DNA of 63,325 bases. Origin: Thermodesulfovibrionales bacterium (GTDB taxonomy: Bacteria > Nitrospirota > Thermodesulfovibrionia > Thermodesulfovibrionales > SM23-35). The position numbers and the translations under genes are program-made. Positions within the stretch are counted from its first letter, which is position 1. Every line of letters starts with the position of its first letter. Under the pieces are notes generated by a model that was not told the origin of the DNA, did no database searches, and saw nothing but the letters and a program-made list of their open reading frames with translations. The stretch is from the NCBI GenBank assembly GCA_963715195.1, contig CAVQRT010000035.1, positions 1-63,325 on the forward strand. The letters are read 5' to 3'. Positions 28,816 to 48,276 of the stretch are shown here, piece after piece.

Positions 28816-31071
28816 TTATGTGGTAAGCGTACGATAGATCTCGGTAATCCTGTTCGGAAGCTTCCGTACATCGTCGAGAACAATATAACTTACTTCCCCG
28901 AACATATGCGGGAGGTATGACCGCGCCTCTTTATCAATGGTAATACAAAAAGGCTGAATCCTCTGCTCCTTGGCTTCGATAAGGGCCTTCCTTGTATCCT
29001 CGACCCCGTAGTCACCCCTGTAACTGTCGCGGTCCTCCGGATGACCATCACTCAGTGTCACAAGCAACTTTGTCTTCACATCAACTTTTTTAAGAATCTG
29101 TGTTGCATGCCGGATAGGAGGGCCCATGCGCGTATAGTCCTTCGGGACAATACCTGCAATTCGCCTCTTCACGGATATGTCGTATCCCTCATCAAATCCC
29201 TTCACCTTATAGAATTCGCACATGTTTCTTGTGACCCCGGAAAAACCGTAAATCGCATACCGGTCACCCAAAGCCTCGAGCGCCTCGCACATAAGTACGA
29301 GGGCCTCTTTCTCTGCCCTGTTCACCCACCCCTTGGTTGAACCACTCATGTCGAGGAGAAAAAGGGCACCGATACTCCTCTCCTGGCGGTCAAGTTTCGT
29401 AAAGAGGTTCTGGCTCGGGGAAAGTCCTGCCCTGGCGTCGGCAAAAGCCTCGACAATCGCATCGATATCTATATCGTCACCCTCTTTCTGACGCCTCATG
29501 ATGTTCAGCTCTTTCTTCAGGAGTTCGAACTTCCTCCTGAGTGTTGTGACGTACCCTCCATAGCGCTTCAGCGTCAGATCAACGAACGGCTCATCACCCG
29601 GATTTATTTCTTTCTCAAAAAGACTGCACCATCCCTTCTTGTAGTCATTTCTTCGGAAATCCCATTCATCATATCTTATGCCTCCCTCCTCACCTTCCTC
29701 TTCCTCTTCTTCAATGAGATCCTTCAATGAGAATATCACTTTCGAATCCAGTGAAGAACTCCCATCGAGAAGCATTCCGTCCGATACAATCCTGACTTCC
29801 TGAAGGATATCTTCTGTTTCCTGATCTACTTCGAAAAGCCTTCCTTTTACCAGAAGATACTTCGCGTCCTTTTTCGGCAATCTCTGTACCAGCGTTGATT
29901 TCCGGGATATCTTGTGCAGGAAAGGGTGCACTTCAGCATTTGGCATATTCACAAGTTTCGAGATAACGCTTTCAAGTCTCTTCTTCTTCTGTGCGGTCTT
30001 CTCTTTCAGGTGTGCGGACACTTTTTTCGGTTGTATCCTTCCCAGATATCCCATGTCCGTTCCGTGGTATTCACCTTTCAGCCCTTCTGCCAAGGAGTAA
30101 AGAGCACACAGGACATCCAGAATTTCCAATGTTTCCCCTGCCTTCCTTACCCTGTGAATCAAGGGAAGTGCTGCCTGAATAAACCTGGTATTCCCTCCCT
30201 TTGTACCACCGGTCAGAAATACCTGATAGAGGCCTTCAACTGCAGCTTGTTTTTCCGAAATTACGCAGAGCGAAGGCCTTTTCTCAAAGAAGCATTTTTT
30301 TATCACCTGTGCGTCTCTCATGAGACCCGACAGCTCCTGCTGAAGATGACGCTCCAGTCTGAATGCATCTATAACGGCGTAAAGATCTACCGCAAGGGCC
30401 TTATGCGCGAACGTGTGAAACAGGTCTGCGATATCAGGACGCGCCACGCGATCTTCTCCTATCACATTCCTCAGGTGCAAGGGATCAGGAGTGAGAGTTC
30501 CCCAGGCGATCCGGGCCCATTGGTAAACCGCCATTAACTTGTAAAGGACAAAATTATTATCCCGTTCCTTAAATTCATTCACATGGTGGGGCAAAAAAAT
30601 ACTCTCGGTATCGGTATAGGATTGATCATCAGGCACAATCCTCAGATGCATGCCTGAAATTCCACACAGGTAGGTTTCAAGAATCACGCTCACCGCCTGC
30701 AGAGAAAGGCCATCCTGTCTTTTGAACTTATTAAGCTCTTCCTCGTCAATCCTAGAAAGAAAACGGAAAAAGGCATCCATGCCCTGTGCTTCGAGAAGAT
30801 CAAAGGCATGGGTTATCCAGAGTTCCATCTCCTTGGGGGAGAGACTTTTTGATGCGGTATTGATCCTTCTGATAAGGTTAGGGACAAGGCCTGATGCTGA
30901 CTTTGAAAGCGAGGCACAAAGTGCGAGGGCCTTCAGACGGTAACGCTGGTCAAAAGCCCTGATGTCACGGGAGACCTTTTCCACCTCCTCGTCTTCGAAA
31001 AGGTCAAAGGTCAGGTTTTGAACAAGATCCTCCCATAGTTCTTCTTTTGCTCTTTTTGCTGCTGTCAGCAT
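28816..31071 (-). CDS. CbbO/NorD-family VWA-domain protein
   Basis: YDEWD, GD.ID.DA, MIDAS DMSGST, YTRMG..IRHA, LSDG.P.D, YG.EDTRKA. Confidence 0.9.
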   Translation of the reverse strand: MLTAAKRAKEELWEDLVQNLTFDLFEDEEVEKVSRDIRAFDQRYRLKALALCASLSKSASGLVPNLIRRINTASKSLSPKEMELWITHAFDLLEAQGMDAFFRFLSRIDEEELNKFKRQDGLSLQAVSVILETYLCGISGMHLRIVPDDQSYTDTESIFLPHHVNEFKERDNNFVLYKLMAVYQWARIAWGTLTPDPLHLRNVIGEDRVARPDIADLFHTFAHKALAVDLYAVIDAFRLERHLQQELSGLMRDAQVIKKCFFEKRPSLCVISEKQAAVEGLYQVFLTGGTKGGNTRFIQAALPLIHRVRKAGETLEILDVLCALYSLAEGLKGEYHGTDMGYLGRIQPKKVSAHLKEKTAQKKKRLESVISKLVNMPNAEVHPFLHKISRKSTLVQRLPKKDAKYLLVKGRLFEVDQETEDILQEVRIVSDGMLLDGSSSLDSKVIFSLKDLIEEEEEEGEEGGIRYDEWDFRRNDYKKGWCSLFEKEINPGDEPFVDLTLKRYGGYVTTLRRKFELLKKELNIMRRQKEGDDIDIDAIVEAFADARAGLSPSQNLFTKLDRQERSIGALFLLDMSGSTKGWVNRAEKEALVLMCEALEALGDRYAIYGFSGVTRNMCEFYKVKGFDEGYDISVKRRIAGIVPKDYTRMGPPIRHATQILKKVDVKTKLLVTLSDGHPEDRDSYRGDYGVEDTRKALIEAKEQRIQPFCITIDKEARSYLPHMFGEVSYIVLDDVRKLPNRITEIYRTLTT

Positions 31072-31092
31072 TGAGAATACCCGGCCTGGATC

Positions 31093-31905
31093 TCAGAAAA
31101 CGGAAACCACAATTTCAGAGAGTGCAACCAGCATTTCACGGTCATCGGTAAGGGGGGATGAAACAGCCACCTCGCAGGCTTTCTTCATATCAATCCCAGC
31201 ACTATTCATTTTTGCAGCGTGGATGAGCAGGCGAGTACTTGCCCCCTCTGTGAGACCCCTGTCCTTGAGGTTTCTCGTCTTCATTCCGAAATATACCAGT
31301 TTCTCTGCAAGATTCTCTTCGATTCCCGATTCATGGATGAGAATTTCTCTTTCAACCTCTTTTGAAGGATAGGAAAACTCTATTGCCATAAAACGCTGCC
31401 TTGTTGACTGCTTCAGATCCTTCAGTACGCTCTGGTATCCCGGGTTATATGATATTGCGAGCATAAACTCGGGGGCTGCCTTCAGTATCTGCCCCTTTTT
31501 CTCTATCGGGAGGATACGTCTGTCGTCTGCAAGTGGGTGAATTACAACGGTCGTATCCTTTCTCGCCTCGACAATTTCGTCAAGATAGCAGAATGCCCCT
31601 GCCTTCACAGCCTTTGTGAGTGGCCCGTCAACCCAGACCGTTTCCCCTCCCTTCACCAGATATCTTCCCACAAGGTCTGACGCGGTAAGGTCGTCATGAC
31701 AGGATACTGTGATCAGAGGCCGTTCCAGCTTCCATGCCATATATTGCATAAAACGTGTCTTCCCGCATCCGGTAGGCCCCTTCAGAAGAACAGGGATATG
31801 ATTTCTATAGGCAGATTCAAAAAGACTCACCTCATTTTCCACCTCACGGTAGTAAGGTTTCTCCGTAACGAGAAATTTTTCTGTTTTCTTGGCTTTTGTT
31901 TTCAT
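31093..31905 (-). CDS. CbbQ/NirQ/NorQ-family MoxR AAA+ ATPase
   Basis: [38 protein letters not shown]. Confidence 0.93.
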
Positions 31906-32902: not shown

Positions 32903-34330
32903 TCAGAAGCCTGCGACTGCTGCTTTCGCAAAACCGAGGAGATACGACGGAAAAATACCGATAAAAAGAACGGCGACAACCGCGATCCCGAGAGCGACGT
33001 TTGTCGATGCGGATGTGGTCAGCGTGACATCTCTCTTAGGATCCCTCATATACATATACATGACGATCCTGAGATAGAAGAATGCCGAGATTGCACTGAA
33101 AATTACTGCAATGACGACGAGCCACGTATAACCTGCGTTTATTGCGCCAAGGAAGAGATAGAGCTTACCGATAAAACCGGCCGTAGGAGGAATGCCTGTC
33201 AGGGAAAACATAAAAATCAGCATAAGCACCGCTGCGAGAGGATGCTGTTTCGAAAGACCCTGATAGTCATCGATATCCTCACCCCTGAATCCTTCACTCC
33301 GGAGCATGGTGATAACCCCGAAGGCACCTATGTTCATGAACGCGTAGATCATCATGTAGTTCATCATGCTTGCGATCCCGTCCTGATTTGCAACAATAAT
33401 CCCGAGAAGGGCATATCCTGCATGGGCAATCGAAGAGTATGCAAGCATCCTCTTGATGTTCGACTGTGAGAGTGCAACGATGTTCCCGACACCCATGGTG
33501 AGGATCGAAAGGACAATCAGAATAGTCTGCCAGTCAACCTTCACAGAAGCAAATGCAATGATGAAGACCCTGCCGAGGACCGCAAATCCGGCTGCCTTCG
33601 GACCGACTGACATGAACGCGGTGATTGAAGTAGGAGCGCCTTCATACACGTCAGGGGCCCACATATGGAATGGTACAAGTGCGATCTTGAACCCGAATGC
33701 CACAATGAGGAACATTGCCGAAAGGAGCAATGACGGATTACCTGCAAGACCGTTCTCCGCGATATAAGAAGCGATATGCTGAAGGTTTGTCGTCCCGGTA
33801 AGGCCGTAGACAATCGAAATGCCATAGAGCAGGAATCCAGAGGAAAATGCCCCGAGAAGGAAATATTTCAGTGCCGCTTCGCTGGACCTTCCGTCATGCC
33901 TGATAAACCCTGCAAGCACATAGGTGCTCAACGCCATGAGTTCAAGCCCCAGGTAGAGCACAATCAGGTCGCCGGCAGATGCCATGAGCATCATCCCTAT
34001 CGTCGAGAAGAGAATCAGGCTGTAATACTCACCGTAATTCACCTTTTCGACAATTATATACTTCATCGAGATGAGTACGGAGAGGACGACATTCACAAGA
34101 AAAATGATCTTGAAGAAAGTGCTGTACCCGTCAGCAATGAACATTCCCCCGAATGTCTCGCCGGACGAACCGATGAGCGAATATGCAACAACGCACACAG
34201 ATGCGATACTCATGAGCGCAACGATCTCTTTTCTCTTTATCAGCAGGTCTGCAAGTAATATGATGAGGGCGAGTCCCGTCAGGACAAGCTCAGGCATCAA
34301 GGGGCTGAGGTCGGGAAGCTGGAAGTTCAT
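32903..34330 (-). CDS. nuoN: NADH-quinone oxidoreductase subunit N
   Basis: EA.LKYF, FK…VPFH.WAPDVYEGAP, KRMLAYSSI.H. Confidence 0.95.
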   Translation of the reverse strand: MNFQLPDLSPLMPELVLTGLALIILLADLLIKRKEIVALMSIASVCVVAYSLIGSSGETFGGMFIADGYSTFFKIIFLVNVVLSVLISMKYIIVEKVNYGEYYSLILFSTIGMMLMASAGDLIVLYLGLELMALSTYVLAGFIRHDGRSSEAALKYFLLGAFSSGFLLYGISIVYGLTGTTNLQHIASYIAENGLAGNPSLLLSAMFLIVAFGFKIALVPFHMWAPDVYEGAPTSITAFMSVGPKAAGFAVLGRVFIIAFASVKVDWQTILIVLSILTMGVGNIVALSQSNIKRMLAYSSIAHAGYALLGIIVANQDGIASMMNYMMIYAFMNIGAFGVITMLRSEGFRGEDIDDYQGLSKQHPLAAVLMLIFMFSLTGIPPTAGFIGKLYLFLGAINAGYTWLVVIAVIFSAISAFFYLRIVMYMYMRDPKRDVTLTTSASTNVALGIAVVAVLFIGIFPSYLLGFAKAAVAGF

Positions 34331-35874
34331 TTCAACACTACCTCCATGATTGCTTTTGCGATATTCACTTCCTGCACACCGCTTCCTGTGGTCACCCTCT
34401 CAAGGAGATGCTCAACAGATACATGCATAAAGCTGAGGAGTGCATTCGGATACACGCCGATCCAGAAGACAAGAAAAAGCATAGGAAGAAGAGTGATCAT
34501 TTCCCTGATATCCATGTCAGGCAGGCCGATCACCTTCTTGTTTATCTCCGTGAAAAACACCCTCTGGTAGAGCAGGAGCATATAGGCCGCACCGATGATC
34601 ACACCGGTTGCCGCGAGTACCCCGACCAGCTTGTTCGCAGTGAATCCACCGAGCAGGATGAGAAACTCTCCGATAAAACCGTTTGTTGCGGGGAGACCGA
34701 TGGATGCCATGGTAAATACCATGAAGAACGCGGCATACATTGGCATCACGGTCGCTAGGCCTCCGTAATCTGCAATTTTCCTTGTATGCGTTCTCTCATA
34801 GACGATTCCTACCGAAAGGAAGAGAGCACCTGTCACCACCCCGTGGTTGATCATCTGGAGGATTCCTCCTTCCATACCCTGGCTGTTCAGTGCAAAAATA
34901 CCGAGTGTCACAAATCCCATGTGACTGACAGAACTGTATGCAATAAGTCTCTTAAGGTCTGTCTGGCCAAGGCATATGACCGCACCGTAGATGATCGCGA
35001 TAACTGACAGGGTAAGCATCACCGGTGTCATGGCGACTGAGGCTTCCGGGAAGAGCGGCAGAGAGAATCTCAGGAATCCGTATGCGCCCATCTTGATAAG
35101 TATGGCGGCAAGGATGACACTTCCTGCGGTTGGCGCTTCTGTGTGTGCATCGGGAAGCCATGTATGGACAGGCCACATCGGCACCTTCACCGCAAACGCA
35201 GCGAAGAATGCCCAGAATAACCACATCTGCATTGTGTAGGGATAAGATTTTGTCATAAGTTCAAGTATGCTAAACGTCTTTCCGGCATAAAGATAGAGCA
35301 TGATGATACCGATAAGCATCAGGAGACTCCCGACGAGAGTATACAGGAAGAATTTTATCGCGGCATACACCCTGTTGGGCCCTCCCCATACGCCGATGAT
35401 GAGGAACATGGGGATAAGCATTGCCTCCCAGAATATGTAGAACAGGAAAAAGTCGAGCGAACAGAAGACCCCGATCATCGCTGCGGTCGTGAGGAGTATG
35501 GATATATAGAATTCCTTTACTTTTGTCTTGATGGAGTTCCACGAAATAAGCACACAGAGGATCGCCGTAAGAGAGGAAAGGAGCACGAAGAGTACGCTGA
35601 TACCGTCGACCCCAAGGAAATAATTCACATTCCACTGCGATATCCACGGATGTTTCTCGACGAACTGCATTTTATGGGTGGTCTTGTCAAAATTGAGGAA
35701 AAGCGGCAATGCAAAGAGCAGCGTCGCTGAACTGGTAATCAGCGCAATCCATTTTGTAAGGAGTTCCCATCCTCTCCTGTTGATAAGAATCAGAAGGGCA
35801 CCGAGAACAGGCAGGAATATCAACGTCGAGAGTATCGGGTATCCAAGTTGATTCATTATGACCTGTTCTTCCAT
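34327..35874 (-). CDS. nuoM: NADH-quinone oxidoreductase subunit M
   Basis: FWEAMLIP, VKVP..P.HTWLPDAH.EAP, LIAYSSVSHMG. Confidence 0.95.
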   Translation of the reverse strand: MEEQVIMNQLGYPILSTLIFLPVLGALLILINRRGWELLTKWIALITSSATLLFALPLFLNFDKTTHKMQFVEKHPWISQWNVNYFLGVDGISVLFVLLSSLTAILCVLISWNSIKTKVKEFYISILLTTAAMIGVFCSLDFFLFYIFWEAMLIPMFLIIGVWGGPNRVYAAIKFFLYTLVGSLLMLIGIIMLYLYAGKTFSILELMTKSYPYTMQMWLFWAFFAAFAVKVPMWPVHTWLPDAHTEAPTAGSVILAAILIKMGAYGFLRFSLPLFPEASVAMTPVMLTLSVIAIIYGAVICLGQTDLKRLIAYSSVSHMGFVTLGIFALNSQGMEGGILQMINHGVVTGALFLSVGIVYERTHTRKIADYGGLATVMPMYAAFFMVFTMASIGLPATNGFIGEFLILLGGFTANKLVGVLAATGVIIGAAYMLLLYQRVFFTEINKKVIGLPDMDIREMITLLPMLFLVFWIGVYPNALLSFMHVSVEHLLERVTTGSGVQEVNIAKAIMEVVLK

Positions 35875-35894
35875 ATTTCTCCTCTAACTGTTTT

Positions 35895-37838
35895 TTACGA
35901 ACGCCACAAAAGGACATACAGGAGAATAAATACAGCCCCTGCAGCCATAAAAATGCCGTAGTGATGCGCAAGGCCGGTCTGAATCCTCCTCAGCTTTCCG
36001 CTGAAACTTCCGATCAGGCCAGGCACCCCGTTCACAACTCCTTCTATGATCTTTGCATCCGTGAATCCGACGAGAATCTTCCTCGCCACCCACATGGTAG
36101 GCTTCACGAGGATAATGTTGTACAGTTCGTCAACATAATATTTGTTATAAAGTATCAGATAAAAGAGATTGTAACTCTTTCCCATCCTGACGGGGATGTG
36201 TGTCTTTTTAAGATAGAATATAAAGGCGAGTATAAGACCAATAAATGCAATTGTGGTGGACAGGCTCATAATTCCGAGTTCCTGTGCATGAGTCCCGTGA
36301 AATTGAGGGTGTCCGACCACCGGCTCCAGGAAATGGGCGAAATGGGCACCCCCACCAAGTACCGGGGGAATACCGATCCAGCCGCATGCAACCGCACCAA
36401 TCGCAAGTATCATCAGGGGAATTGTCATCACCTTCGGCGATTCGTGGAGGTGATGTTCTTCATGGTGCGTACCCCTGAATTTACTGTGAAAGGTGAGGAA
36501 CATCAGCCTGAATGTATAGAACGGGGTAAAAAACGCGATACTGGTCATCAGCAGCCATACAAAAGTCCCGACCCCGCTGTGGGCGGCAAATGAAGACCAG
36601 ACAATCTCGTCCTTGCTGAAAAATCCGGCAAACCCCGGGATACCTCCCGCGCTGAGCGCTGCGAGCAGCATGGTAATGTATGTGACAGGCATATACTTCT
36701 TGAGCCCTCCCATCCTCTGCACGTCATTATGTCCGACCGCATGGATGACACTCCCCGCCCCGAGGAAGAGCAATGCCTTAAAGAACGCATGCGTATAAAG
36801 GTGGAACACTCCGGCTGCGAATGCCCCTACCCCGCACGCAACGAACATCATCCCGAGATGGCTAAGCGTCGAATACGCGATGATCCTCTTGATGTCATTC
36901 TGCACGCAGGCGATTGTTGCAGCAAATACCGACGTGACCGCTCCGACCACGGCCACCATGTTCATCGTAAACGGTGCAAGCACAAAAAGGGAATTGCAAC
37001 GCGCAACGAGGAATACACCGGCGGTTACCATGGTTGCCGCGTGTATGAGTGCACTGACCGGTGTCGGGCCTTCCATCGCATCAGGGAGCCACACATGCAA
37101 GGGTATCTGGGCTGATTTACCGACTGCGCCGCAGAAAAGAAGGACGGTAATCAGGGTAATCAAATCAACGTCATACCCCAGGAAATTAACTCTGTGCCCA
37201 ACAAAATCCTTGACGCCCTCAAAAACCGGCGCATAGTGTATCGTTCCGAAAGTGAGGAATATCATGAAAATCCCGAGTGCGAACCCGAAATCGCCGAACC
37301 TGTTCACGATGAATGCCTTTTTCCCTGCGTCGGCTGCTGACTTCTTCTCGTACCAGAAGCCGATGAGGAAATACGAGCAGACACCGACACCCTCCCAGCC
37401 GAAATAGAGCTGCAGGAAGTTGTTCGAAGTGACGAGCATCAGCATCGAAAACATAAACAGACTGAGATAGGCGAAAAACCGGTAGTATCCCTTGTCACCA
37501 TGCATGTAGCCTATCGAATAGATATGAATAAGCGTACTGATGGCTGTGACGACAATGAGCATGACCGCGGAGAGCTGGTCAATCAGAAAACCGACCGATA
37601 CATGAAAATTACCTGACACGATCCAGGTGTAGAGGTCTTCATTGATTATCATGCCCCCGAGCACATCAAAAAGGGCTATGACCGATACAATGAATGAACC
37701 GATAATCGCAAGGCATGAAGGCCAGTGGGCCTTCGTCCGCAAAATCTCCTTTCCAAGGAGGATGTTGATTATGAAGGCCGCAAGCGGCAAAAACGGTATC
37801 AATAAATATAATTTCATCAGTTCAGGCCCTGTGCCCAT
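35895..37838 (-). CDS. nuoL: NADH-quinone oxidoreductase subunit L
   Basis: GKSAQIPLHVWLPDAMEGPTPVSALIHAATMV, HAFFKALLF. Confidence 0.95.
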   Translation of the reverse strand: MGTGPELMKLYLLIPFLPLAAFIINILLGKEILRTKAHWPSCLAIIGSFIVSVIALFDVLGGMIINEDLYTWIVSGNFHVSVGFLIDQLSAVMLIVVTAISTLIHIYSIGYMHGDKGYYRFFAYLSLFMFSMLMLVTSNNFLQLYFGWEGVGVCSYFLIGFWYEKKSAADAGKKAFIVNRFGDFGFALGIFMIFLTFGTIHYAPVFEGVKDFVGHRVNFLGYDVDLITLITVLLFCGAVGKSAQIPLHVWLPDAMEGPTPVSALIHAATMVTAGVFLVARCNSLFVLAPFTMNMVAVVGAVTSVFAATIACVQNDIKRIIAYSTLSHLGMMFVACGVGAFAAGVFHLYTHAFFKALLFLGAGSVIHAVGHNDVQRMGGLKKYMPVTYITMLLAALSAGGIPGFAGFFSKDEIVWSSFAAHSGVGTFVWLLMTSIAFFTPFYTFRLMFLTFHSKFRGTHHEEHHLHESPKVMTIPLMILAIGAVACGWIGIPPVLGGGAHFAHFLEPVVGHPQFHGTHAQELGIMSLSTTIAFIGLILAFIFYLKKTHIPVRMGKSYNLFYLILYNKYYVDELYNIILVKPTMWVARKILVGFTDAKIIEGVVNGVPGLIGSFSGKLRRIQTGLAHHYGIFMAAGAVFILLYVLLWRS

Positions 37839-37857
37839 TCATAGAGTGTGTACAAAA

Positions 37858-38160
37858 TCATCCTTTTAGCCCTTTCGCCTCGTCCACATGTGCGGTTGCC
37901 CTGTTCCTGAAGAAGGCTATGACGATCGCCAATCCTATGGCTGCCTCGGCTGCTGCGACCGCGATCACAAAAAATGCGAGTATCTGCCCCCTCACGTCCT
38001 GCATGTAATGGCTCATTGCAATAAGATTGATGTTCACCGCATTCAGCATTAGCTCTATCGACATGAACATCAGAATGATATTCTTCCTTGTGAGAAAGCC
38101 GAACACCCCGATGGTAAATACCGCGAGACTGAGTACCATGTACCAGCTTAAAGGAACCAT
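37858..38160 (-). CDS. nuoK: NADH-quinone oxidoreductase subunit K
   Basis: SIELMLNAVN, AAAEAAIGLA. Confidence 0.95.
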   Translation of the reverse strand: MVPLSWYMVLSLAVFTIGVFGFLTRKNIILMFMSIELMLNAVNINLIAMSHYMQDVRGQILAFFVIAVAAAEAAIGLAIVIAFFRNRATAHVDEAKGLKG

Positions 38161-38163
38161 ATA

Positions 38164-38675
38164 TTAACTTTTCAGCCTCCTCTTCGCAAGGACTATTGCA
38201 CCGATAATCGCCACAAGGAGGACCAGCGATGCGATCTCAAACGGGAAAAGATATTCTGTATATAAAACCTTTCCAATCACTTTTGTATGGGTCTCCTGCT
38301 GAATGAGGTCGATCGAGTAGTTCCCTGCGGCGCGAGGATAAACGACCTCAGCGAGAGAATGACAAGCACGAAAAGAGCAACGGCAAACGTGAACCCGGCC
38401 GACCAGGCCCCGATGAACCGCCCGATAGTGAGTTCCTCTCTGAGGTTCATCAGGAGCACGACAAAGAGAAACAGCACGAGGATGCCTCCTGCGTAGACAA
38501 TCAGCTGTACCGCGGCCATGAACTCGGCATTCAGGAAGAGATAGAGGCTCGCGATATGGAAAAACAGGAGCAGCATCCAGAGCAGGCTGTGTACCGGATT
38601 CTTCCGGGTGACTACCACCAGCGAAAGAGCGACGATCGCAAAGGCGAAATACGCAAAAAAGAGTTCAGGAATCAT
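38164..38675 (-). CDS. nuoJ: NADH-quinone oxidoreductase subunit J (frameshift near 38320)
   Basis: NPVHS, AEF.AAVQ..VYAGG..VLFLFV; C-terminal FPFEIAS.VLLVA..GA. Confidence 0.93.
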
Positions 38676-39199
38676 GCGTCTTTCCCCCTCGGCTGATTTG
38701 CAGGTGTCTCAAAGTCCTCAGACATAGGCCTCCAGAACTTTTTGAAATAATACTCGCCCTTGTTCCCCGGCATGTACTTGTCCCAGTTTGCAAGCAGCTT
38801 TTCCTTATTCATAAGAAGCCGTTCCTTCGCGTATTCAGAATATTCATAGTTCTCTGTGAGGACAATCGCCCCGTACGGACATGCCTCCACGCAGAACCCG
38901 CAGTAGATGCATCTCAATACCTCAATCTCATATCCGGTCACCTGCCCCTTTGACCTTGTCACCTTGATGCACTGCGCCGGACAGATCGTTGCGCAGAGAC
39001 CGCACCCGACACACTTTGCTTGCCCGGTAGCCTGGTTCTTTGCGAGGGCATGCTGTCCCCTGAATCCTGCAGCGATCTTCCTTCTTTCCTTGGGGTACTG
39101 AATAGTGACAGGACGGGAAAACAGCCTGCTCAGGGTAAGGGCCATTCCCTGGAGAATCTCGATGAAAAAGACCTTTTTGACAAGTTGCCTGACAGTCAC
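38672..39199 (-). CDS. nuoI: NADH-quinone oxidoreductase subunit I
   Basis: T.QYP, FRG.H, CVGCGLCATICP and CIYCGFCVEACP. Confidence 0.95.
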   Translation of the reverse strand: MTVRQLVKKVFFIEILQGMALTLSRLFSRPVTIQYPKERRKIAAGFRGQHALAKNQATGQAKCVGCGLCATICPAQCIKVTRSKGQVTGYEIEVLRCIYCGFCVEACPYGAIVLTENYEYSEYAKERLLMNKEKLLANWDKYMPGNKGEYYFKKFWRPMSEDFETPANQPRGKDA

Positions 39200-39210
39200 C
39201 TATTTGCTCC

Positions 39211-40272
39211 TTACCATATGATTTTCACCAGTCCTGTGATAAGTATGTTCGCGAGTGCGACCGGAATGAGCACCTTCCACCCTATCGCCATCACCTGGTC
39301 ATACCTGTACCTCGGCAGCGTCGCGCGTATCCAGTAGTAGAAGAATATGAATGCATACACCTTCATGAGGAACCACACTATCCCAGGCACATGGGAAAGG
39401 AAGGGGAATACCTTGAGCACGTACCATGGCAGTGTCCAGCCACCGAGAAAACAGACTGCGGAAAGTGAGGCAATAATGAACATTGCAATATATTCGCCGA
39501 GGAAGAAGAGCGCGAACCTGAACCCGCTGTACTCAGTAAAGTATCCCGCAACGAGTTCGCTCTCTGCCTCCGGCATGTCGAACGGGGTTCTGTTCGTCTC
39601 CGCAACCGCAGAGATGGTAAAGACGACAAACGCAACGAACTGGGGTATGGCGTACACCCCGAAGACAGACTGTTCCTGCATCCTGACGATCTCTCCAAGA
39701 TTCAGCGACCCCGCCATGATCATCACCCCGACTAGACTCAGTCCCATCGCAATCTCATAACTGATGACCTGCGCAGAGGACCTGAGTCCGCCGAGGAAGG
39801 CGTACTTGGAGTTCGATGCCCAGCCTGCAATAAACACCCCGTAGACACCGATACCGGCAATGGCAAAGAGAAATAAAAGACCGATATTAAGGTCGGCAAT
39901 CACAAAATTCTCTGCAAACGGGATCACGGAAAGATTGACCATTGCCGATGCCATGAAAATGACCGGCGCAAGATAAAAGACTGCCTTATCCGCCTGTGCC
40001 GGGATGATATCTTCCTTGAAAAAGAGCTTGAGCCCGTCAGCAAAAGGCTGCAGGAGCCCGTGCGGGCCGACCCTCATAGGGCCCATCCTTACCTGCATAT
40101 GACCGATTACCTTGCGCTCGAAATATGTTGCATATGCAACGTGCAGCAACCCCACTGCGAGGACAACCGCAATCTTCACTATAATAATGATGACGTCGAT
40201 GCTGAACTGAATCACTGCACCCAGGGCTGCAGGCGGCATGAGGTTATTTAATATGCCGTTCAATGTATCCAT
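39211..40272 (-). CDS. nuoH: NADH-quinone oxidoreductase subunit H
   Basis: ERK…MQ.R.GP, LLQP.ADGLKL..KE, ETNRTPFD.PEAESEL..G. Confidence 0.96.
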   Translation of the reverse strand: MDTLNGILNNLMPPAALGAVIQFSIDVIIIIVKIAVVLAVGLLHVAYATYFERKVIGHMQVRMGPMRVGPHGLLQPFADGLKLFFKEDIIPAQADKAVFYLAPVIFMASAMVNLSVIPFAENFVIADLNIGLLFLFAIAGIGVYGVFIAGWASNSKYAFLGGLRSSAQVISYEIAMGLSLVGVMIMAGSLNLGEIVRMQEQSVFGVYAIPQFVAFVVFTISAVAETNRTPFDMPEAESELVAGYFTEYSGFRFALFFLGEYIAMFIIASLSAVCFLGGWTLPWYVLKVFPFLSHVPGIVWFLMKVYAFIFFYYWIRATLPRYRYDQVMAIGWKVLIPVALANILITGLVKIIW

Positions 40273-40275
40273 TGG

Positions 40276-41740
40276 CTATCTATCGCACTCTCCAAGCACA
40301 ATATCGATTGTACCGATGTTCGCAATGACGTCGGCAACCAGATGTCCCTTGCAGAGCCGGGGCAATACGCCTGCGTGGATAAAAGACGGCGCTCTCACCC
40401 TCATTCTGTAAGGCTTTCCTGTTCCGTCGCTCACGAAATAGAATCCGAGTTCCCCTTTCGGGACTTCGGTTGCAACATAGACGTCCCCTGCCGGCGCCTT
40501 CGGACCTTTCTTTATAAACGTAAAGTGTTCGACAAGGTGCTGCTGGGCCGTCTTCATCTCCTCCGAAAGCTCGGCTTTGGACATTTCGACCAGCTTGTCC
40601 TCGGGCTGTCCTTTTCCGCCCGGCACTATTTTCATTGCCTTGAACTTGCATGTGACAAAGCAGGTTGCACAGTTCAGGCAGAGGCTTTGATCGATCTTGT
40701 GCGGCTTTTTCTTCTCCCCAGTGATTGCCTTTGCAGGGCATGCCCTGAGACACATGCCGCATCCCTTGCACGCTTTCTCATCCACAAGGTACGCCACGTC
40801 CTTCATCGGATGTGTAATCGCCATCATCTTGTCTTTCGGCTGGAGTACGAATTTGGGTGCATCGGCCATTATCGGTCCGGGAGGCAGCTTGTCAATGACA
40901 CTGCCTTATGATGCTGTTTGACTCTCTCATCTCGAGCATTCTGCAGCGGTAACGGTCATACGTATCTCCCTTGGTGCCGATCGGAACACTGAACTCGACC
41001 TGGTCGTACGCGTCATATGGCATGTGTTTCCTTATATCATATGAGACTCCCGACCCCCTCAACGTGGGCCCGGTCATTCCCCAGCTCACCGCTTCTTCAG
41101 CCGAGATCACCCCGATATCAACCGTCCTCTTCAGCCAGATCCTGTTCTGGTCGATCAGGGTTTCATATTCAAGTATCCTTGAAGGGAACTCATCGGTAAA
41201 CTTCCAGACACTATCGATGAATTCCTGCGAGATATCGTTCCTCACCCCGCCTATCCTCGGGTAGGTGACGGTGAGCCGCGCTCCGCAGATATTCTCATAC
41301 AAGTCGAGAATCCATTCCCTCTCTCTGAAACAATAAAGGAAATACCGTCATCGCCCCTATGTCGAGCGCATGGGTTGCGAGCCAGAGAAGGTGGTTTGCA
41401 ATCCTTGACAGTTCACCGAGGATCGTCCGTATGAACTTAGCCCTCTCGGGGGCCTCTATCCCGTAAAGTTTTTCGACCGCAAGGACATACCCGATATTGT
41501 TTGACATCGCTGACACATAATCCATCCTGTCAGTAAGAGGAAGGGCCTGGAAGTAACTGAGGCTCTCCCCTGAGCTTCTCAATCCCCCTGTGGAGATATC
41601 CGACGTAGGGGGTCACATTCACGATCACTTCTCCATCAAGGTCGAGCACAAGGCGCAAAACACCGTGTGTAGCCGGATGCTGCGGCCCCATGTTTACATT
41701 CAGCTCTCTCTGTTTCGAATATCTTCTCTAACTGCTCCAT
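40276..41740 (-). CDS. nuoD: NADH-quinone oxidoreductase subunit D with an inserted 2x[4Fe-4S] ferredoxin domain (frameshifts in the 5' part)
   Basis: [37 protein letters not shown]-terminal DIVLGECDR; insert [12 protein letters not shown]…[12 protein letters not shown]. Confidence 0.92.
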
Positions 41741-41741
41741 A

Positions 41742-42330
41742 TTATCCTTCCCACTCGAACTCTTTCAGTTCCTCAGACCTCTTGAGCGTGTCGGTAAATC
41801 CTGGCCAGTCCTGCTCCAACGGAGGACCTGCGAGGGGGTAGTCTTTTCTCAGGGGATGCCCTTCCCAATCCTCCGGCATAAGGATTCTCCTGAGATCAGG
41901 ATGGCCGGTGAATTGAATGCCAAACATATCGAAACACTCACGCTCATGCCAGTTGGCACCCGCCCAGAGGGGGACGACCGACCTGATGGCCGGGTCTCTC
42001 TGGCACCTGTGCCTTCAGGCGCAGACTGTGGCGATAGCGTATGGAATAAATATTATAGACGACTTCAAACCGCGGTTCCTTTTTTCCGCGCCAGTCGACC
42101 GCGGTGAGATCCTGGAGATGGTCAAACAGCAGATGGGGATCGTCATGAAGAAATCTGCAGATATCGAGGATTCTCCCGCGCTTCAGGATCACCGAGACCT
42201 GGCCCATCGTCTCTGTGACTTCGACCACTTCTTCAGGGAAATTCTCCTTGATCTTTTCCGCAATTTCGTTCGGATCAATGCTTGCCGGGGGAAGCGAGAG
42301 TCTTAATGACGTTACCGCCATGGGCTCCAC
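41742..42330 (-). CDS. nuoC: NADH-quinone oxidoreductase subunit C (frameshifted)
   Basis: [44 protein letters not shown]. Confidence 0.92.
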
Positions 42331-42830
42331 CTCGCTTTTTCGTTTCTGATTTTCTCCTGAAGCATCATCATACCCTCCAAGAGTGTTTCAGGCCTGGGCG
42401 GGCAGCCCGGGACGTATACATCTACAGGGAGGAATGTATCGCATCCCTGAACCGTGCTGTATGTCCTGAATACCCCGCCGGTACACGCACAGCTTCCCAT
42501 CGCGACTACATACCTCGGCTCGGGAATCTGGTCATATACCCGTCTTACCACAGGGGCCATCTTTTTTGTCACCGTACCGGCGACAATCACACAGTCCGCC
42601 TGCCTGGGGGACCCCCTGAATATTATCCCGAACCGGTCAAAATCGTAGTGAGCCGCACCTACCGCCATCATTTCGATCGCGCAGCAGGCAAGCCCGAATG
42701 TGGTTGGCCATATCGAAGACAGTCTTCCCCAGTTGATGACCTTGTCGAATGTCGTGATGATTACGTTCGGAGGCAATATCCTGGTGTCTTCTTCTACCTG
42801 TATAAGTCCGACTGTCGATGTGTCAAGCAC
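42312..42830 (-). CDS. nuoB: NADH-quinone oxidoreductase subunit B
   Basis: [32 protein letters not shown]. Confidence 0.96.
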
Positions 42831-42859
42831 CTTCTTCTACCCTCCGTTTTCCATGAAGG

Positions 42860-43231
42860 TTAATCCCATTGAAACGCCTCTTTTTTCCATGCATAGAGGT
42901 AGCCGATCAAAAGGATCACTATAAAGATAACCATTTCTATAAAGGCATAAATGCCGATCTTGTCGAAAACTATAGCCCAGGGATAAAGGAATATTGCTTC
43001 CACGTCGAAGACGACGAAGAGCATGGCAATGATATAGAACCTTATCGAGAATCTGTAGCGTGGTTCTCCTGTCGGGGTAATGCCTGATTCGTATGGCATG
43101 AGCTTTTCAAAATAGGGTTTTTTCAGTCTGAAGATCATGCCGATAAGTAGTGCACCGAGACCGAATGCCGATGCAATCAAAATGAAGATAAGAACCGGTA
43201 AATATTCTGATGGCAAATATGTTCCAGGCAT
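42860..43231 (-). CDS. nuoA: NADH-quinone oxidoreductase subunit A
   Basis: K..PYESG, FY..AMLF..FDVE..FLYPWA. Confidence 0.96.
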   Translation of the reverse strand: MPGTYLPSEYLPVLIFILIASAFGLGALLIGMIFRLKKPYFEKLMPYESGITPTGEPRYRFSIRFYIIAMLFVVFDVEAIFLYPWAIVFDKIGIYAFIEMVIFIVILLIGYLYAWKKEAFQWD

Positions 43232-43241
43232 AAGCGCTTAT

Positions 43242-43271
43242 GTTATACTGAATAGCGCCACCTCTTGTCAA
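43242..43271 (-). promoter_or_regulatory. Sigma70-type promoter of the nuo operon
   Basis: TTGACA-18nt-TATAAC ending 10 nt before the nuoA ATG. Confidence 0.6.
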
Positions 43272-43337
43272 GTAAAAATTTTTCGGATATTCGCGAAAGG
43301 CTGAAAATGGACAGGGGTATCTTAAAAAGGGGGTTTT

Positions 43338-44174
43338 ATGTTTAAAATTCTCAAAAAAGAGACTCTCTCAGATGCCGTCACACTCTTTGATATTGAAGCG
43401 CCTGACATTGCCCGGAAAGCAAAGGCCGGAAATTTTTTCATACTCAAAATCGATGAGCGTGGCGAGAGAATCCCGCTCACCATTGCTGACTTTGACAGCG
43501 GGAGAGGCACTATCACGACCGTTTTCCAGAAAATCGGGAAGACAACCTTTCAGCTTGATGAACTCGGGGAAGGGGATATCCTCTCCGACGTCACCGGACC
43601 CCTCGGCATGCACAGCCATATAGACAGGTTTGGCAAGGTTATCTGTGTTGGAGGCGGGGTCGGGATCGCGCCGGTGTATCCTATCGCGAGGGAACTGAAA
43701 GAAGCGGGGAACCAGGTCATTTCGATCATCGGGGCCCGCACAAAAGACCTCCTCTTCTGGGAAGAAAAGATGCGGGAGGTCTCTGATGAACTCATCGTCA
43801 CGACCGACGACGGCTCATACGGCAGAAAATGTGTCGTGACGGTCCCGCTGGAAGAAATACTCCGTGAAAAGCAAGAGGTGGCACAGGTAACCGCTATCGG
43901 CCCTGCCATCATGATGAAATTCGTCTGTATCACCACTGAAAAATATAATGTAAAAACAATCGTGAGCCTCAATTCCATTATGGTCGACGGCACAGGAATG
44001 TGCGGCGCATGCAGGATCGAAGTCGGGGGGGAAACCAGGTTTGCCTGTGTGGACGGCCCCGAGTTTGACGGGCATAAGGTGGACTTTGACCTGCTTATGT
44101 CGCGGCAGAGAATGTATCTGGACGAGGAAAAATCTGCGCTTGCACAATACAGGGCATCTACCGTAGGGGAGTAA
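43338..44174 (+). CDS. nfnA: NfnA/SudB-type small subunit (FAD, [2Fe-2S]) of electron-bifurcating transhydrogenase
   Basis: GERIPLTIAD, GGGVG.AP, TDDGSYG, MVDGTGMCGACR, CVDGPEFD. Confidence 0.85.
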   Translation: MFKILKKETLSDAVTLFDIEAPDIARKAKAGNFFILKIDERGERIPLTIADFDSGRGTITTVFQKIGKTTFQLDELGEGDILSDVTGPLGMHSHIDRFGKVICVGGGVGIAPVYPIARELKEAGNQVISIIGARTKDLLFWEEKMREVSDELIVTTDDGSYGRKCVVTVPLEEILREKQEVAQVTAIGPAIMMKFVCITTEKYNVKTIVSLNSIMVDGTGMCGACRIEVGGETRFACVDGPEFDGHKVDFDLLMSRQRMYLDEEKSALAQYRASTVGE

Positions 44175-44176
44175 TT

Positions 44177-45598
44177 ATGGATGAGAAGAAAAAGAAACCC
44201 AGAGTAGCGATGCGTGAGCAGGATCCGCGGGAACGGGCGAAAAATTTCATGGAAGTCCCCCACGGCTATTCACCCGAGGAAGCGGTCGATGAGGCTTCGC
44301 GATGCCTGGGGTGCACAAGGCCCGCATGCAGGAACGGCTGCCCCGTACGGGTTGATATTCCCTCCTTTATTAAACTGATCAAGGAAGGCAGGTTTATCGA
44401 GGCGGCATGGAGCGTGAAAGAGCAAAACGCGCTGCCTGCTGTATGCGGCAGGGTATGTCCCCAGGAAATACAGTGTGAATCAATGTGTATCCTTGGGAAA
44501 AAGGGAGAACCTGTCGCCATAGGGAATCTCGAACGGTTTGTTTCTGATTATGAAGCAGCGGCGGGAGAGATTCAGGTGCCCAAGATACCAAGGAAGACCG
44601 GCAGGAAGATCGCAATCATCGGCTCTGGTCCGGGAGGGTTAACGTGTGCTGCCGAACTGATCAGGTCAGGTCATGAGGTAACCCTGTTCGAGGCCCTGCA
44701 TAAACCGGGGGGCGTGCTCGTCTACGGCATCCCCGAATTCCGGCTTCCGAAAGCGATCGTTGAAAGGGAAGTTGCCTATATACAACAACTTGGGGTCAAA
44801 GTTGTCGTGAATGCGGTCATTGGAAATCTCCATACGATTGATGAATTGCTGGACGTTCAGGGATACGATGCATGCTTCGTCGCGACAGGAGCAGGCCTGC
44901 CCGTATTCATGGGCATCCCCGGGGAAAACCTGAACGGCATCTATTCGGCGAATGAGTTTCTCACACGGGCCAATCTTATGAAGGCATACCTCTTCCCGGA
45001 ATATGACACCCCTATCAGGAGGGGAAAGCATGTGGCGGTCATCGGCGGCGGGAACGTCGCTATGGACTCTGCAAGGGTGGCATTGCGCCTCGGCGCAGAG
45101 AAGGTATCTCTCATTTACAGGCGGTCCGAAGCCGAGATGCCAGCCCGGAAGGCAGAGGTACACCACGCCCACGAAGAGGGCATAGATTTTCAGTTTCTGA
45201 CCAATCCCCTGCGTTACATAGACGACGGCAGCGGAAATGTCTGTGCAGTGGAATGCATCCGCATGGAACTGGGCGAAGCCGATGACTCGGGGAGAAGGAG
45301 ACCCGTCCCCGTTCAGGGGAGCGAATTCCAGATCGAGATAGATGTAGGTATCCCTGCAATCGGCACAAGATCAAACCCCCTGCTTCTGAACAGCACGGAA
45401 GGCCTCCGGACAAACAGAAGAGGCTATATCATCGCAAATGAAGAAACGGGGATGACCTCACGCAAGGGCGTATTTGCCGGCGGGGACATCGTTACCGGTT
45501 CCGCGACCGTAATCCTCGCGATGGGCGCAGGGAGGAAGGCAGCATCCGCAATCAAAGAATACCTGAAGTGGAAGTACTGGGACTTCGGGGAAGAGTGA
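44177..45598 (+). CDS. nfnB: NfnB/SudA (GltD-like) large subunit
   Basis: RCL.C…C..GCP, CGRVCPQE.QCE, GSGPGG, YGIPEFRLP, GGGNVAMD, YRR, AGGDIVTG; follows nfnA with no gltB nearby. Confidence 0.85.
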   Translation: MDEKKKKPRVAMREQDPRERAKNFMEVPHGYSPEEAVDEASRCLGCTRPACRNGCPVRVDIPSFIKLIKEGRFIEAAWSVKEQNALPAVCGRVCPQEIQCESMCILGKKGEPVAIGNLERFVSDYEAAAGEIQVPKIPRKTGRKIAIIGSGPGGLTCAAELIRSGHEVTLFEALHKPGGVLVYGIPEFRLPKAIVEREVAYIQQLGVKVVVNAVIGNLHTIDELLDVQGYDACFVATGAGLPVFMGIPGENLNGIYSANEFLTRANLMKAYLFPEYDTPIRRGKHVAVIGGGNVAMDSARVALRLGAEKVSLIYRRSEAEMPARKAEVHHAHEEGIDFQFLTNPLRYIDDGSGNVCAVECIRMELGEADDSGRRRPVPVQGSEFQIEIDVGIPAIGTRSNPLLLNSTEGLRTNRRGYIIANEETGMTSRKGVFAGGDIVTGSATVILAMGAGRKAASAIKEYLKWKYWDFGEE

Positions 45599-45677
45599 AC
45601 GATCCCCTGTCCCGCAGAAAAAAAACTCCCTCTGCAACTCTGAAGATATTTTCCGTCTCTTCCGATAGAATAAAAAA

Positions 45678-46152
45678 ATGGACCAGGCCGAAGCTGATGC
45701 CCGCTTTATGAAACTCGCCCTCCAGGAGGCGGAATCTGCCTATATCGAAGGCTGAGGTCCCTGTTGGTGCAGTTCTCGTTCGGAAAGGCGAAGTCATCGC
45801 AAGGGCACACAACAGGAGGGAATCATCAAAAGACCCGACAGGCCATGCAGAGATGCTTATTATGCGGGCCTCCGGAGGGGGCGGTGACAGCTGGAGACTC
45901 GAAGACACCACGCTTTATGTGACGAAAGAACCATGCATAATGTGTGCAGGAGGCATGATCAATGCAAGGCTGGGAAGGCTTGTATACGGATGCGGGGACG
46001 AAAAAGGCGGGGCAGTCGACAGTCTTTACCATATCCTTTCAGATGAGAGGTTGAATCATCAGGTCGAGGTTGTTTCAGGCATCCTTGCTGACCTGTGCGC
46101 AGAGGTGCTGAAAAAATTTTTCAGGGAACGGAGGCAGGAAAAGCTTCCCTGA
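45678..46152 (+). CDS. tadA: tRNA adenosine(34) deaminase (one frameshift)
   Basis: FM..AL.EA, EVPVGAV, HAE, WRL…TLYVT.EPC.MCAG. Confidence 0.88.
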
Positions 46153-46257
46153 GAAATGCGTTCAGGAAAACGTACATTTCTGCTTTTGTATTAATCAAAT
46201 CATTTCATTTAAACTATCATTTGTTGCTGAATGCTCATGTCTGTTGATTCTTGATGC

Positions 46258-46347
46258 GGAGGGGTGCCAGAGCGGTTGAATGGGACGGTCTCGAAAATCG
46301 TTGTGGGGGCAACCCCACCGAGGGTTCGAATCCCTCCCCCTCCGCCA
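46258..46347 (+). tRNA. tRNA-Ser(CGA)
   Basis: GGAGGGG acceptor stem, anticodon loop CTCGAAA, long variable arm, GGTTCGAATCC, CCA end. Confidence 0.95.
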
Positions 46348-46407
46348 CTCATTTTGCCTCATGACCACCACGTTCCGTGACCCTGGCCCCCTTTTCTGTT
46401 CTCATCG

Positions 46408-46830
46408 CTATGTGGGCACCCACACCTTCCCCTTTTCTATAATATGTATCACCTCCCATCCTCTCTTCCGGAGTTCTTTCGCAATCCATTTCCTGTGGCA
46501 TTTCCAGGGAAATTTTTCGGCGCAGATAATCACCGCCGGGCTTCGCAATGCAATCGGTTCGATCAACCCCACCCCCTCCAGGAAATCCTCTGTAGCTTTA
46601 TAGGAGAGGTACCCCCCCTTTCGAAGCCCTCCCAATTCTCTTCCAAGGAAATAGTACGCTATTCCTTCGCGGGCGAGAAAGGGTTAAAGGAGTTCCCTGC
46701 TGAAGATGCTGATCCTGCTACTGGAAAAACTTCTTACGTCAATCAATGACCGGATATCGTACGCCTTGAGAATTTCTATAAAATCCTCTTCGCTTCTCCT
46801 GCTCGTCCCCAGGGTAAATACCTTTTTCAT
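46408..46830 (-). CDS. DUF488-family protein (frameshifted)
   Basis: FTLGTS.R..E.F…L, LIDVR, LGG.R, CAE…W.CHR. Confidence 0.8.
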
Positions 46831-47211
46831 CTTCTTATAAAGAAATTCACCTGAAGGAGAAACTAACAATGCATGTGAGGAAGTTGTGGATAGAGGTGTG
46901 TAAAACTCATCCCGGCTTTACAGATATCAGGGTCTTCTTTTCTTTGCATATAAATTAGGCAGCCTAAATGTAGCGCAAAAACATGCCCTTGTCAATTTTC
47001 TCTCGCATTCTTTCCTGGAGCATGACCTCTATGGGCGCTGAATCTTTGTCATACGGGGCTTTTCTTTAGTCCTGTTTTCCGAAACACCTCTGAATGCCTG
47101 TATTCACTGGGAATGCGAGGATGGATCATCGTGTCACACTTTCTCCTGAGAGCTGTTCACGAAATCTCTGCGTGTGTACTGACGAATTCGTGCAGGTGCT
47201 TCTTCAGCGTC

Positions 47212-47922
47212 TCAATTCGCCGTCTTTTTGTCCAGCGAGGATACAAACCTCTCGAGTGTCGCCATATCAGTTTCAGACATGTCCATGAACTCAATCCCTA
47301 TCTCATATCGCGGCGGGGTCATAATCTCTGCCGGCCTGCATGTGACAATTCTTCCCCATAGGGCAATTGCATAGTTTTTCGAAAGGGTCATTTCCATCGG
47401 GACCATTTCCTCAACCGGCAATACAAAATCACTCTCTATCAGCATACCGCATTTACTTAACCTTTTCACCGTGTAATTCTCAACGCACCGGACCGTTGCC
47501 CGCTCCGGGTCATGGATTGTGAACCTCACATGAATCCTGATTCCGTTCATCAGGGGAGCCCCTCCGCCTACCGGCTGATAATCGATATAATTGTCCCTTA
47601 TGAACTTTTCAATCTCTCTTGTGCGCGTGTCTGAAATATTCTGGAACTTCATGCCAACCGTAAATGCCTGAGGGACCTCCCCCTCCTTCGCGGTGCCAGC
47701 CTGCTGCGTGGACCAGACAATTTTCCCTCTTAAATGCAGGATGCAGCCTTTGTTTTCAAGCCTGAGCACATACACCCCCCCGGTATTCAGCTGTTTTTCT
47801 GTCATAAAGGCAATGCCACCGCCACTGATATTGAGTACCTTCACATTGTTTGAAAAAAGTATTTTTCCGTGGATATTCATAAAATCCACAGAGAACCTTG
47901 GATGTCGCCTGTTTTCTTTCAC
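47212..47922 (-). CDS. Tandem PilZ-domain protein
   Basis: RRHPRF…NISGGG (RxxxR, N/DxSxxG); second PilZ is degenerate. Confidence 0.85.
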   Translation of the reverse strand: MKENRRHPRFSVDFMNIHGKILFSNNVKVLNISGGGIAFMTEKQLNTGGVYVLRLENKGCILHLRGKIVWSTQQAGTAKEGEVPQAFTVGMKFQNISDTRTREIEKFIRDNYIDYQPVGGGAPLMNGIRIHVRFTIHDPERATVRCVENYTVKRLSKCGMLIESDFVLPVEEMVPMEMTLSKNYAIALWGRIVTCRPAEIMTPPRYEIGIEFMDMSETDMATLERFVSSLDKKTAN

Positions 47923-48201
47923 CGGACCCGGTCCTTTTTCATCTGTAAGAACATGTCTGTGCTATATGCCTGAACACCAATGTAACTGTACATACACTTT
48001 TGTCCCTCTATATGTAATTTTCACTTTTCAAAGAAGGAAGTCAATCCTACTTGGGGAGGGGAGTGTGCTTTCACTTAGAGAATTCAGACATGAGCCATGC
48101 GTCTTTCCGAAAAGAGCATATGTCGGATTGGAGCTGTTCACAGGGGGTCAAAAACTGGGTTGACAGTTATGACAGACTCCATGTTATTTTATATACTCTT
48201 C

Positions 48202-48276
48202 GGGCGATTAGCTCAGCGGGAGAGCGCTTCCTTCACACGGAAGAGGCCACTGGTTCGAAACCAGTATCGCCCACCA
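48202..48276 (+). tRNA. tRNA-Val(CAC)
   Basis: GGGCGAT acceptor stem, CTTCC-TTCACAC-GGAAG anticodon arm, GGTTCGAAACC, CCA end. Confidence 0.95.

Follow-up and report, generated by a model that had tools for sequence, protein, structure and literature searches.

The nuoD gene of the window (the whole 63,325-nucleotide stretch of contig CAVQRT010000035.1 analyzed here, from a Thermodesulfovibrionales bacterium) encodes a complex I subunit with a ferredoxin-type domain inserted near its C-terminal end. By sequence, this domain is a putative two-cluster B3/B4 domain descended from the C terminus of a bifurcating-type BfuB/HydB protein. The insert belongs to an operon that has lost nuoEFG, occurs together with a shortened hairpin in NuoI, and has spread laterally. 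We propose that the enzyme is a ferredoxin:quinone (probably menaquinone) proton pump in which the insert serves as an in-series relay to cluster N6a, a reading that we hold at about even odds (roughly 0.5).

The fusion lies in a single stop-free frame of 197 aa on the minus strand (40869–40279), which runs from the end of the NuoD N-terminal domain through the ferredoxin domain and a linker to the NuoD C terminus, as the first-pass annotation had described. This frame is the C-terminal part of nuoD only. A tblastn search with P0001, an intact insert-bearing NuoD homolog of 486 aa (96% identical), placed the whole gene at 40276–41716 (minus strand) and showed it to be broken into four frames in the window. 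Compared with contigs from run X4 that belong to a close relative, the window has four extra single bases (40898, 41343, 41571 and 41711). Because those contigs do not have them, and because nuoC (once), nuoJ (once) and rpoB of the same assembly are also frameshifted, the breaks are most likely assembly errors. A Pfam search returned a Complex1_49kDa domain split by Fer4: Fer4 occupies residues 28–78 of the 197-aa frame, Complex1_49kDa positions 156–271 follow directly after the insert, and positions 21–155 are found in the ORF upstream. The many indels in the assembly, together with the lack of cover over the insert itself in the reads of four sequencing runs, would fit an artefactual join of nuoD to a hydB fragment; RNA run X18 gave short pieces only. 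Since none of the four runs covered the insert, the case against misassembly rests on homologs. The same in-frame fusion occurs in P0001, in 71 protein clusters from several sources and in 45 of 301 genomes; the artefact reading is thereby already refuted, we give it practically no weight, and the fusion is confirmed as real.

Alignment with insert-less relatives delimits an insert of ∼90 residues (P0001 residues 306–395; window 40552–40821, minus strand), composed of a linker, the ferredoxin-type domain (40624–40791, minus strand; from Pfam Fer4 and the domain tree) and a BfuB-derived helical tail or linker. It is placed between the loop that follows the four-helix bundle and the helix where bovine NDUFS2 resumes, at residue 369. 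We take this NuoD surface to be the one that faces NuoG in 14-subunit enzymes. The two CxxCxxCxxxC motifs first noticed in the translation are present, with eight Cys at 40648–40770, none of which varies in any of the 69 aligned homologs; both motifs would be expected to hold clusters. The median dN/dS was 0.15 for the ferredoxin domain (59 unsaturated pairs) and 0.045 for the NuoD C terminus, and conservation within the insert is lowest in the linkers (0.74–0.81 vs. 0.84–0.93). The insert is strongly basic (net charge +5 to +9), and the small ferredoxin of the genome (61 aa) is acidic (net −8) and a candidate electron donor. The structure predicted for P0001 from a deeper alignment has a pLDDT of 89.6 (84–89 over the insert) and a pTM of 0.85; that alignment was used in place of one with 69 close homologs only, which gave a pLDDT of 58. 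A search of the ESM Atlas yielded no usable match. One homolog, P0071 (469 aa), is without the first linker of roughly 17 residues and keeps all eight Cys, which is either a natural variant or an assembly error.

Profile, fold and quinone site all identify the protein as NuoD. P0001 scores 549 against TIGR01962 (cut-off 459), and its model matches the 49-kDa subunit NDUFS2 with a TM-score of 0.94–0.95 (by target length, on core-length chains). The quinone-site residues H25, Y74 and D126 (P0001 numbering is that of NdhH +2) are invariant in 69 of 69 homologs, and correspond to the His/Tyr/Asp set described as H38, Y87 and D139 in T. thermophilus and as H23, Y72 and D124 in NdhH (PMC6992706). 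Neither the N-terminal nor the C-terminal CxxC pair of NiFe ligands is found in P0001, which has a lone C-terminal Cys484; the protein is therefore not a group 4 [NiFe] hydrogenase. A NuoD has no iron–sulfur cluster of its own, and this one, with its two motifs, would have two. The helix and loop after the insert are remodeled (40498–40551, minus strand; from alignments and NdhH profile position). Position 409 of P0001 is Lys in 90% of insert-bearing NuoD and Thr in 80% of insert-less NuoD, and K413, 18 residues past the end of the insert, aligns with NdhH profile position 321, a match that assumes agreement between the profile and the T. elongatus numbering (both are 394 long). The comparison with NdhH and NdhI was made through profile positions, with NdhH K315 outside the aligned stretch. 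K315 and K321 of NdhH are reported to contact ferredoxin in NDH-1 (PMC7021789), and the insert, whose position the first-pass annotation had singled out, sits just 5′ of this ferredoxin-binding segment.

The operon reads nuoABCDHIJKLMN (32903–43231, minus strand; from ORFs and Pfam), without nuoEFG, as had been seen in the first pass; the N-module of the 14-subunit NADH:quinone oxidoreductase is thus missing from it. Divergent from nuoA lies nfnAB, for an NfnA/NfnB-type transhydrogenase (43338–45598, plus strand; from Pfam and locus annotation). No sigma-70 promoter match was found between nuoA and nfnA. A survey of 57 genomes of the family found the insert in 43, no insert in nine, a fragment in one and no match in four. 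In all 41 insert loci of the family where the gene after nuoD can be seen, it is nuoH, as in G110 and G201. Operon-type NuoF is absent from all 43 insert genomes and was found in three of the 57, all insert-less; outside the family, 10 of 12 genomes carry nuoEFG in the operon. The suggestion that the insert tracks with loss of nuoEFG holds in one direction, in that the two never co-occur; in the other it fails, with five of the nine insert-less members also lacking operon nuoEFG and one having a nuoG remnant. Given these five, and given that G017 and G057 are also without the donor-type BfuB described below, the insert is not required after loss of the head. The apparently decaying head is seen in G052, where a 203-aa C-terminal nuoG remnant lies between nuoD and nuoH (L127:7697–8305).

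Several other features of the locus deserve mention. Downstream from nuoN and a nitroreductase, at 28816–31905, the window carries a CbbQ/NirQ/NorQ-type AAA ATPase with a VWA-domain partner, a pair not seen in the other annotated insert loci; in E. coli, complex I is a target of the related RavA–ViaA pair. Genes for tRNA-Ser(CGA) and tRNA-Val(CAC) lie at 46258–46347 and 48202–48276. A candidate selenocysteine codon, an in-frame TGA, takes the place of the first Cys of the tandem-Cys N2 ligand in the nuoB of 16 of 59 readable loci, whether or not the genome carries the insert; locus L025 (G000 contig C33) is among them, and the window copy has Cys.

The likeness of the insert to the C-terminal ferredoxin domain of HydB-type subunits, pointed out from the sequence, reflects descent: tree and shared tail both lead to the HydB/BfuB C terminus. 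In a tree of 121 domains, built on about 80 residues, the 36 inserts form a clade (support 0.945) that is sister to long-tailed BfuBs (0.89; joint support 0.90). Mean identity of the insert is 62% to 39 long-tailed BfuBs and 55% to 50 others. In insert-less relatives, the BfuB of the putative donor type (620–650 aa) has a ferredoxin domain that matches HydB/NfnB structures and, after it, a tail that resembles the second linker of the insert. Its gene is divergent from nuoA; neighbors in the cluster code for a sensor kinase, regulators, a NuoE-like fusion, a thioredoxin-like 2Fe-2S protein and a NuoG-type subunit with the N5 motif and without the Mo ligand, and often include nfnAB. Donor-type BfuB (>1000 bits) occurs in seven of the nine insert-less family genomes (all except G017 and G057) and in G015. 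It was found in none of the 43 insert genomes, where the best match (825 bits) is a fusion without the domain. Directly upstream of nuoA, 30 of the 43 have nfnAB and six have pntAB; nfnAB at this place is what deletion of the rest of the donor cluster would leave behind. Other BfuB-like genes persist in insert genomes (four in G000), and in three of the 43 a different Bfu-like cluster adjoins nuoA, which may supply a head in trans. Schut et al. (2022) predicted a Nuo-Bfu complex in Nitrospirae (BfuB clade 39) and assigned to B3/B4 the exchange of electrons with ferredoxin in Bfu enzymes (PMC9304861), and a cryo-EM structure of NfnABC places ferredoxin 12.8 Å from B3/B4 (PMC12018979). We also noted that in two insert genomes (L131:3975–7157 in G034, L185 in G047) the gene immediately upstream of nuoA codes for a 1060-aa NuoF/BfuB–GltD fusion in which the C-terminal ferredoxin domain is missing, and that the donor-type BfuB and NuoG-like pair is tandemly duplicated beside a nuoEFG-bearing operon (L201 on G066 C116; L204/L205 in G068).

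The insert is accompanied by a change in NuoI. The basic hairpin between the N6a and N6b motifs (38912–38980, minus strand; from NuoI alignments) is 23 residues long rather than 27–29. Each of 36 insert genomes has a spacing of 23, and each of the 45 insert-less ones in which it could be measured has 27–29, whether nuoEFG is present or not. A first count had given 33 of 33 insert genomes at 23, and 18 of 18 insert-less genomes plus G015 at 27–29; G110, G201 and G003 were then found to have 23 as well. A hunt for exceptions among those NuoI matches of the order that scored lowest found 27–29 in all 27 measurable sequences from other families (one match was partial). G037 has a spacing of 23, and nuoD was not found there. 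We rejected the idea that the short hairpin follows loss of nuoEFG, as all eight headless insert-less NuoI are long. With the insert, the hairpin turns from neutral or acidic to basic (mean +2.6), and Arg82 is present in 100% of insert genomes. Since nuoD and nuoI are linked genes (only in G006 does a nuoH of native type separate them), most of this co-occurrence is inheritance. In NDH-1, K86, K89 and K91 of the NdhI hairpin are described as binding ferredoxin together with the NdhH lysines, 9.6 Å from N6a (PMC6992706, PMC7021789).

We then asked how the insert is distributed. The 71 protein clusters that match the whole query carry the source labels Thermodesulfovibrionales or Nitrospirota. 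In the order-wide sample, the 45 carriers are G000, 42 of 54 further family genomes and 2 of the 20 genomes of a second family; the 226 genomes from eleven more families have none, so that the insert is in 2 of the 246 genomes of the order sampled outside the family. Of 19,204 representatives at 50% identity, the best 150 included a single cluster that matched end to end and no independent NuoD–ferredoxin insertion; a NuoCD with two motifs was discarded as a separate case, the motifs being N-terminal to NuoD and not inserted. Contig C33 of G000 (35411–48105) has a second nuoA–N and nfnAB locus with the same insert and ∼72% DNA identity to the window, which may be a paralog or come from a second strain or bin contamination (6.6% contamination).

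Insert genomes do not form a clade in the RpoB tree, and a single origin with vertical descent was rejected: 33 selected RpoB rows need five changes, and monophyly has a p-AU of 4e-42 (the test left out G000, G064, G015, G054, partial rows, extra genus members and 9 of 12 outgroups). G006 groups with three members of its genus that have nuoEFG and no insert. The products of its nuoA, nuoB, 5′ nuoD and nuoH are 88%–98% like theirs, and its insert and 3′ nuoD are 88%–95% like those of other genera, with DNA windows switching likewise; it has the short NuoI hairpin and has neither nuoEFG nor donor BfuB. This mosaic may be a chimeric assembly. A NuoD core tree (FastTree) had suggested that G066–G068 lost the insert, an idea that we set aside because G006 is the mosaic. 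In G110, of another family and without nuoEFG, nuoA–I are 90%–96% identical to insert genomes and nuoK and nuoL are of native type. G201 has the operon in full; the RpoB type of its bin is one also found in G064, and this bin may be a mixture. (G064 itself has two full rpoB genes, on C121 and C152, one of which groups with another family, and its bin is contaminated.) The insert and the short hairpin have spread jointly by recombination, and the mosaics G006 and G110 gained both. Judging by G006, G110 and G201, the 45 carriers reflect some two to five independent events of lateral spread rather than 45 of them, and repeated lateral gain suggests that the insert is beneficial.

The relay reading is favored by the eight invariant Cys, the dN/dS of the domain, its sister position to BfuB and the 23-residue hairpin. 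On this reading, the ancestor would have had two possible heads, the NuoEFG of the operon and a divergently encoded bifurcating BfuABC of Nuo-Bfu type. The lineage has dropped both and retained only the ferredoxin-contacting B3/B4 domain of BfuB, spliced into the NuoD loop beside NuoI, where it would stand in place of NuoG, and the NuoI hairpin would have been trimmed to fit it. A reduced acidic ferredoxin would dock on the basic surface, and electrons would pass from the two insert clusters to N6a, N6b, N2 and quinone. The basic insert, the trimmed hairpin and the new NuoD Lys fit a pocket for an acidic partner shared between subunits as well as they fit a tight contact between insert and NuoI. 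That shared pocket leads to a different division of labor, which we consider unlikely although it is the strongest of the rivals: ferredoxin wedged between insert and NuoI would feed N6a directly, and the insert clusters would be an off-path buffer that helps to pair one-electron deliveries for the two-electron reduction of quinone. The basic residues on all sides (insert, NuoI Arg82, NuoD Lys409) agree with this, as do the ferredoxin reported to be wedged between B3/B4 and another domain in NfnABC (PMC12018979) and NDH-1, which is described as needing no extra cluster (PMC6992706). However, the ferredoxin grip of NDH-1 is a long hairpin, which is shortened here, and eight invariant Cys would be costly for a mere binding wall.

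Compared with an in-series relay, other roles for the domain fare worse. Flow could be reversed, with the proton motive force driving electrons from quinol to ferredoxin and the insert as the exit toward NfnAB (for NADPH) and reductive carboxylations. In Bfu enzymes, B3/B4 is the exit site at which ferredoxin is reduced (PMC9304861), and nfnAB commonly adjoins nuoA, but by our own estimate electrons from menaquinol would have to climb ∼0.4 V each, close to the limit of the energy that four protons supply, and the adjacency is accounted for by the donor-cluster remnant, with pntAB instead in some carriers; we regard this direction as quite improbable. The first-pass annotation had offered two roles, an extension of the Fe–S wire or a tethered ferredoxin replacing the N-module, and the second, acting freely, is the less likely, because the domain is basic like a ferredoxin-binding domain and the small ferredoxin of the genome is acidic. 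Such a mobile domain would take electrons straight from NfnAB, a 2-oxoacid oxidoreductase or another Bfu module and swing to N6a, and free ferredoxin would play no part. B3/B4 is described as loosely attached in Bfu enzymes (PMC12018979), the linkers vary most and other Bfu modules are still in the genome; yet no one partner gene lies beside the operon in all carriers, and we rate the idea slightly below reverse flow. Least probable of these is a role without catalytic electron transfer, as a structural cap or a redox or oxygen sensor that would cover N6a once NuoG had been lost. The faster evolution of the insert relative to the NuoD core would suit it, and off-path clusters such as N7 are known in the superfamily (PMC9474812), but headless operons of the same family do without the insert, a capped N6a would leave a pump without electron entry, and repeated lateral gain speaks for a benefit.

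The protein, a NuoD within an 11-subunit operon, belongs to none of Nuo-Bfu, NDH-1 or the hydrogenases. Like Nuo-Bfu (PMC9304861), it joins a complex I core to a BfuB-type B3/B4 domain that would here, too, exchange electrons with ferredoxin, and the likely donor cluster lies beside nuoA in insert-less relatives. Unlike Nuo-Bfu, where a BfuABC head is encoded with the nuo genes, insert genomes have no donor-type BfuB, and there is no BfuA, BfuC, FMN or NAD site; B3/B4 stands alone and is covalently part of NuoD. Cyanobacterial and chloroplast NDH-1 similarly has 11 core subunits and no N-module (PMC6992706, PMC7021789), and electrons enter it at N6a, close to the NdhI hairpin and to a segment in the C-terminal part of NdhH; by analogy we propose the same entry point here. 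NDH-1, however, is described with a long hairpin as its ferredoxin pocket, the accessory subunits NdhL–O, S and V and a cluster-free NdhH, whereas here the hairpin is short (six residues fewer than in the ndhI profile) and a two-cluster domain is built in. Short inter-motif spacing recurs in HycF of formate hydrogenlyase and in subunit N of Pyrococcus MBS (PDB 6u8y_N). In the E. coli formate hydrogenlyase, HycF, a NuoI homolog, receives electrons from the ferredoxin-like protein HycB (PMC9474812), much as proposed here. There and in MBS/MBH, though, the feeder is a separate subunit, and the catalytic subunit of formate hydrogenlyase is a [NiFe] hydrogenase, whereas this NuoD keeps the quinone-site residues and has no NiFe ligand pairs. 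The gene set nuoABCDHIJKLMN is shared with 11-subunit complex I-like enzymes (PMC3144371, PMC11238625), for which the cited passages give no fixed entry module; here a candidate one is encoded inside NuoD. The literature searched, with most subscription journals outside its coverage, held no description of a NuoD–ferredoxin fusion.

In the passages cited, a genome survey designates no electron partner for 11-subunit complex I (PMC3144371), and a more recent study of anaerobes only proposes a donor (PMC11238625). With a candidate electron port that is hard-wired, traceable in origin and matched by a change in NuoI, the question of what feeds these enzymes becomes testable. The scope is uncultured anaerobic Nitrospirota, mostly of one Thermodesulfovibrionales family, in which the function is read from genomes. 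The close relatives keep the ancestral states (a NuoEFG head, a Bfu head and no head) and so form a natural series for swaps of the input module. Tentatively, and with somewhat less confidence than in the relay itself, we suggest that the NuoD-borne entry clusters are a minimal portable ferredoxin head taken from a bifurcating enzyme, mobile as a nuoA–I cassette or as two small tracts (insert and NuoI hairpin), which would make a pump fed by NADH or a Bfu head dependent on ferredoxin alone. If true, these bacteria would offer a living example of the transition from Nuo-Bfu to a ferredoxin-dependent complex I.
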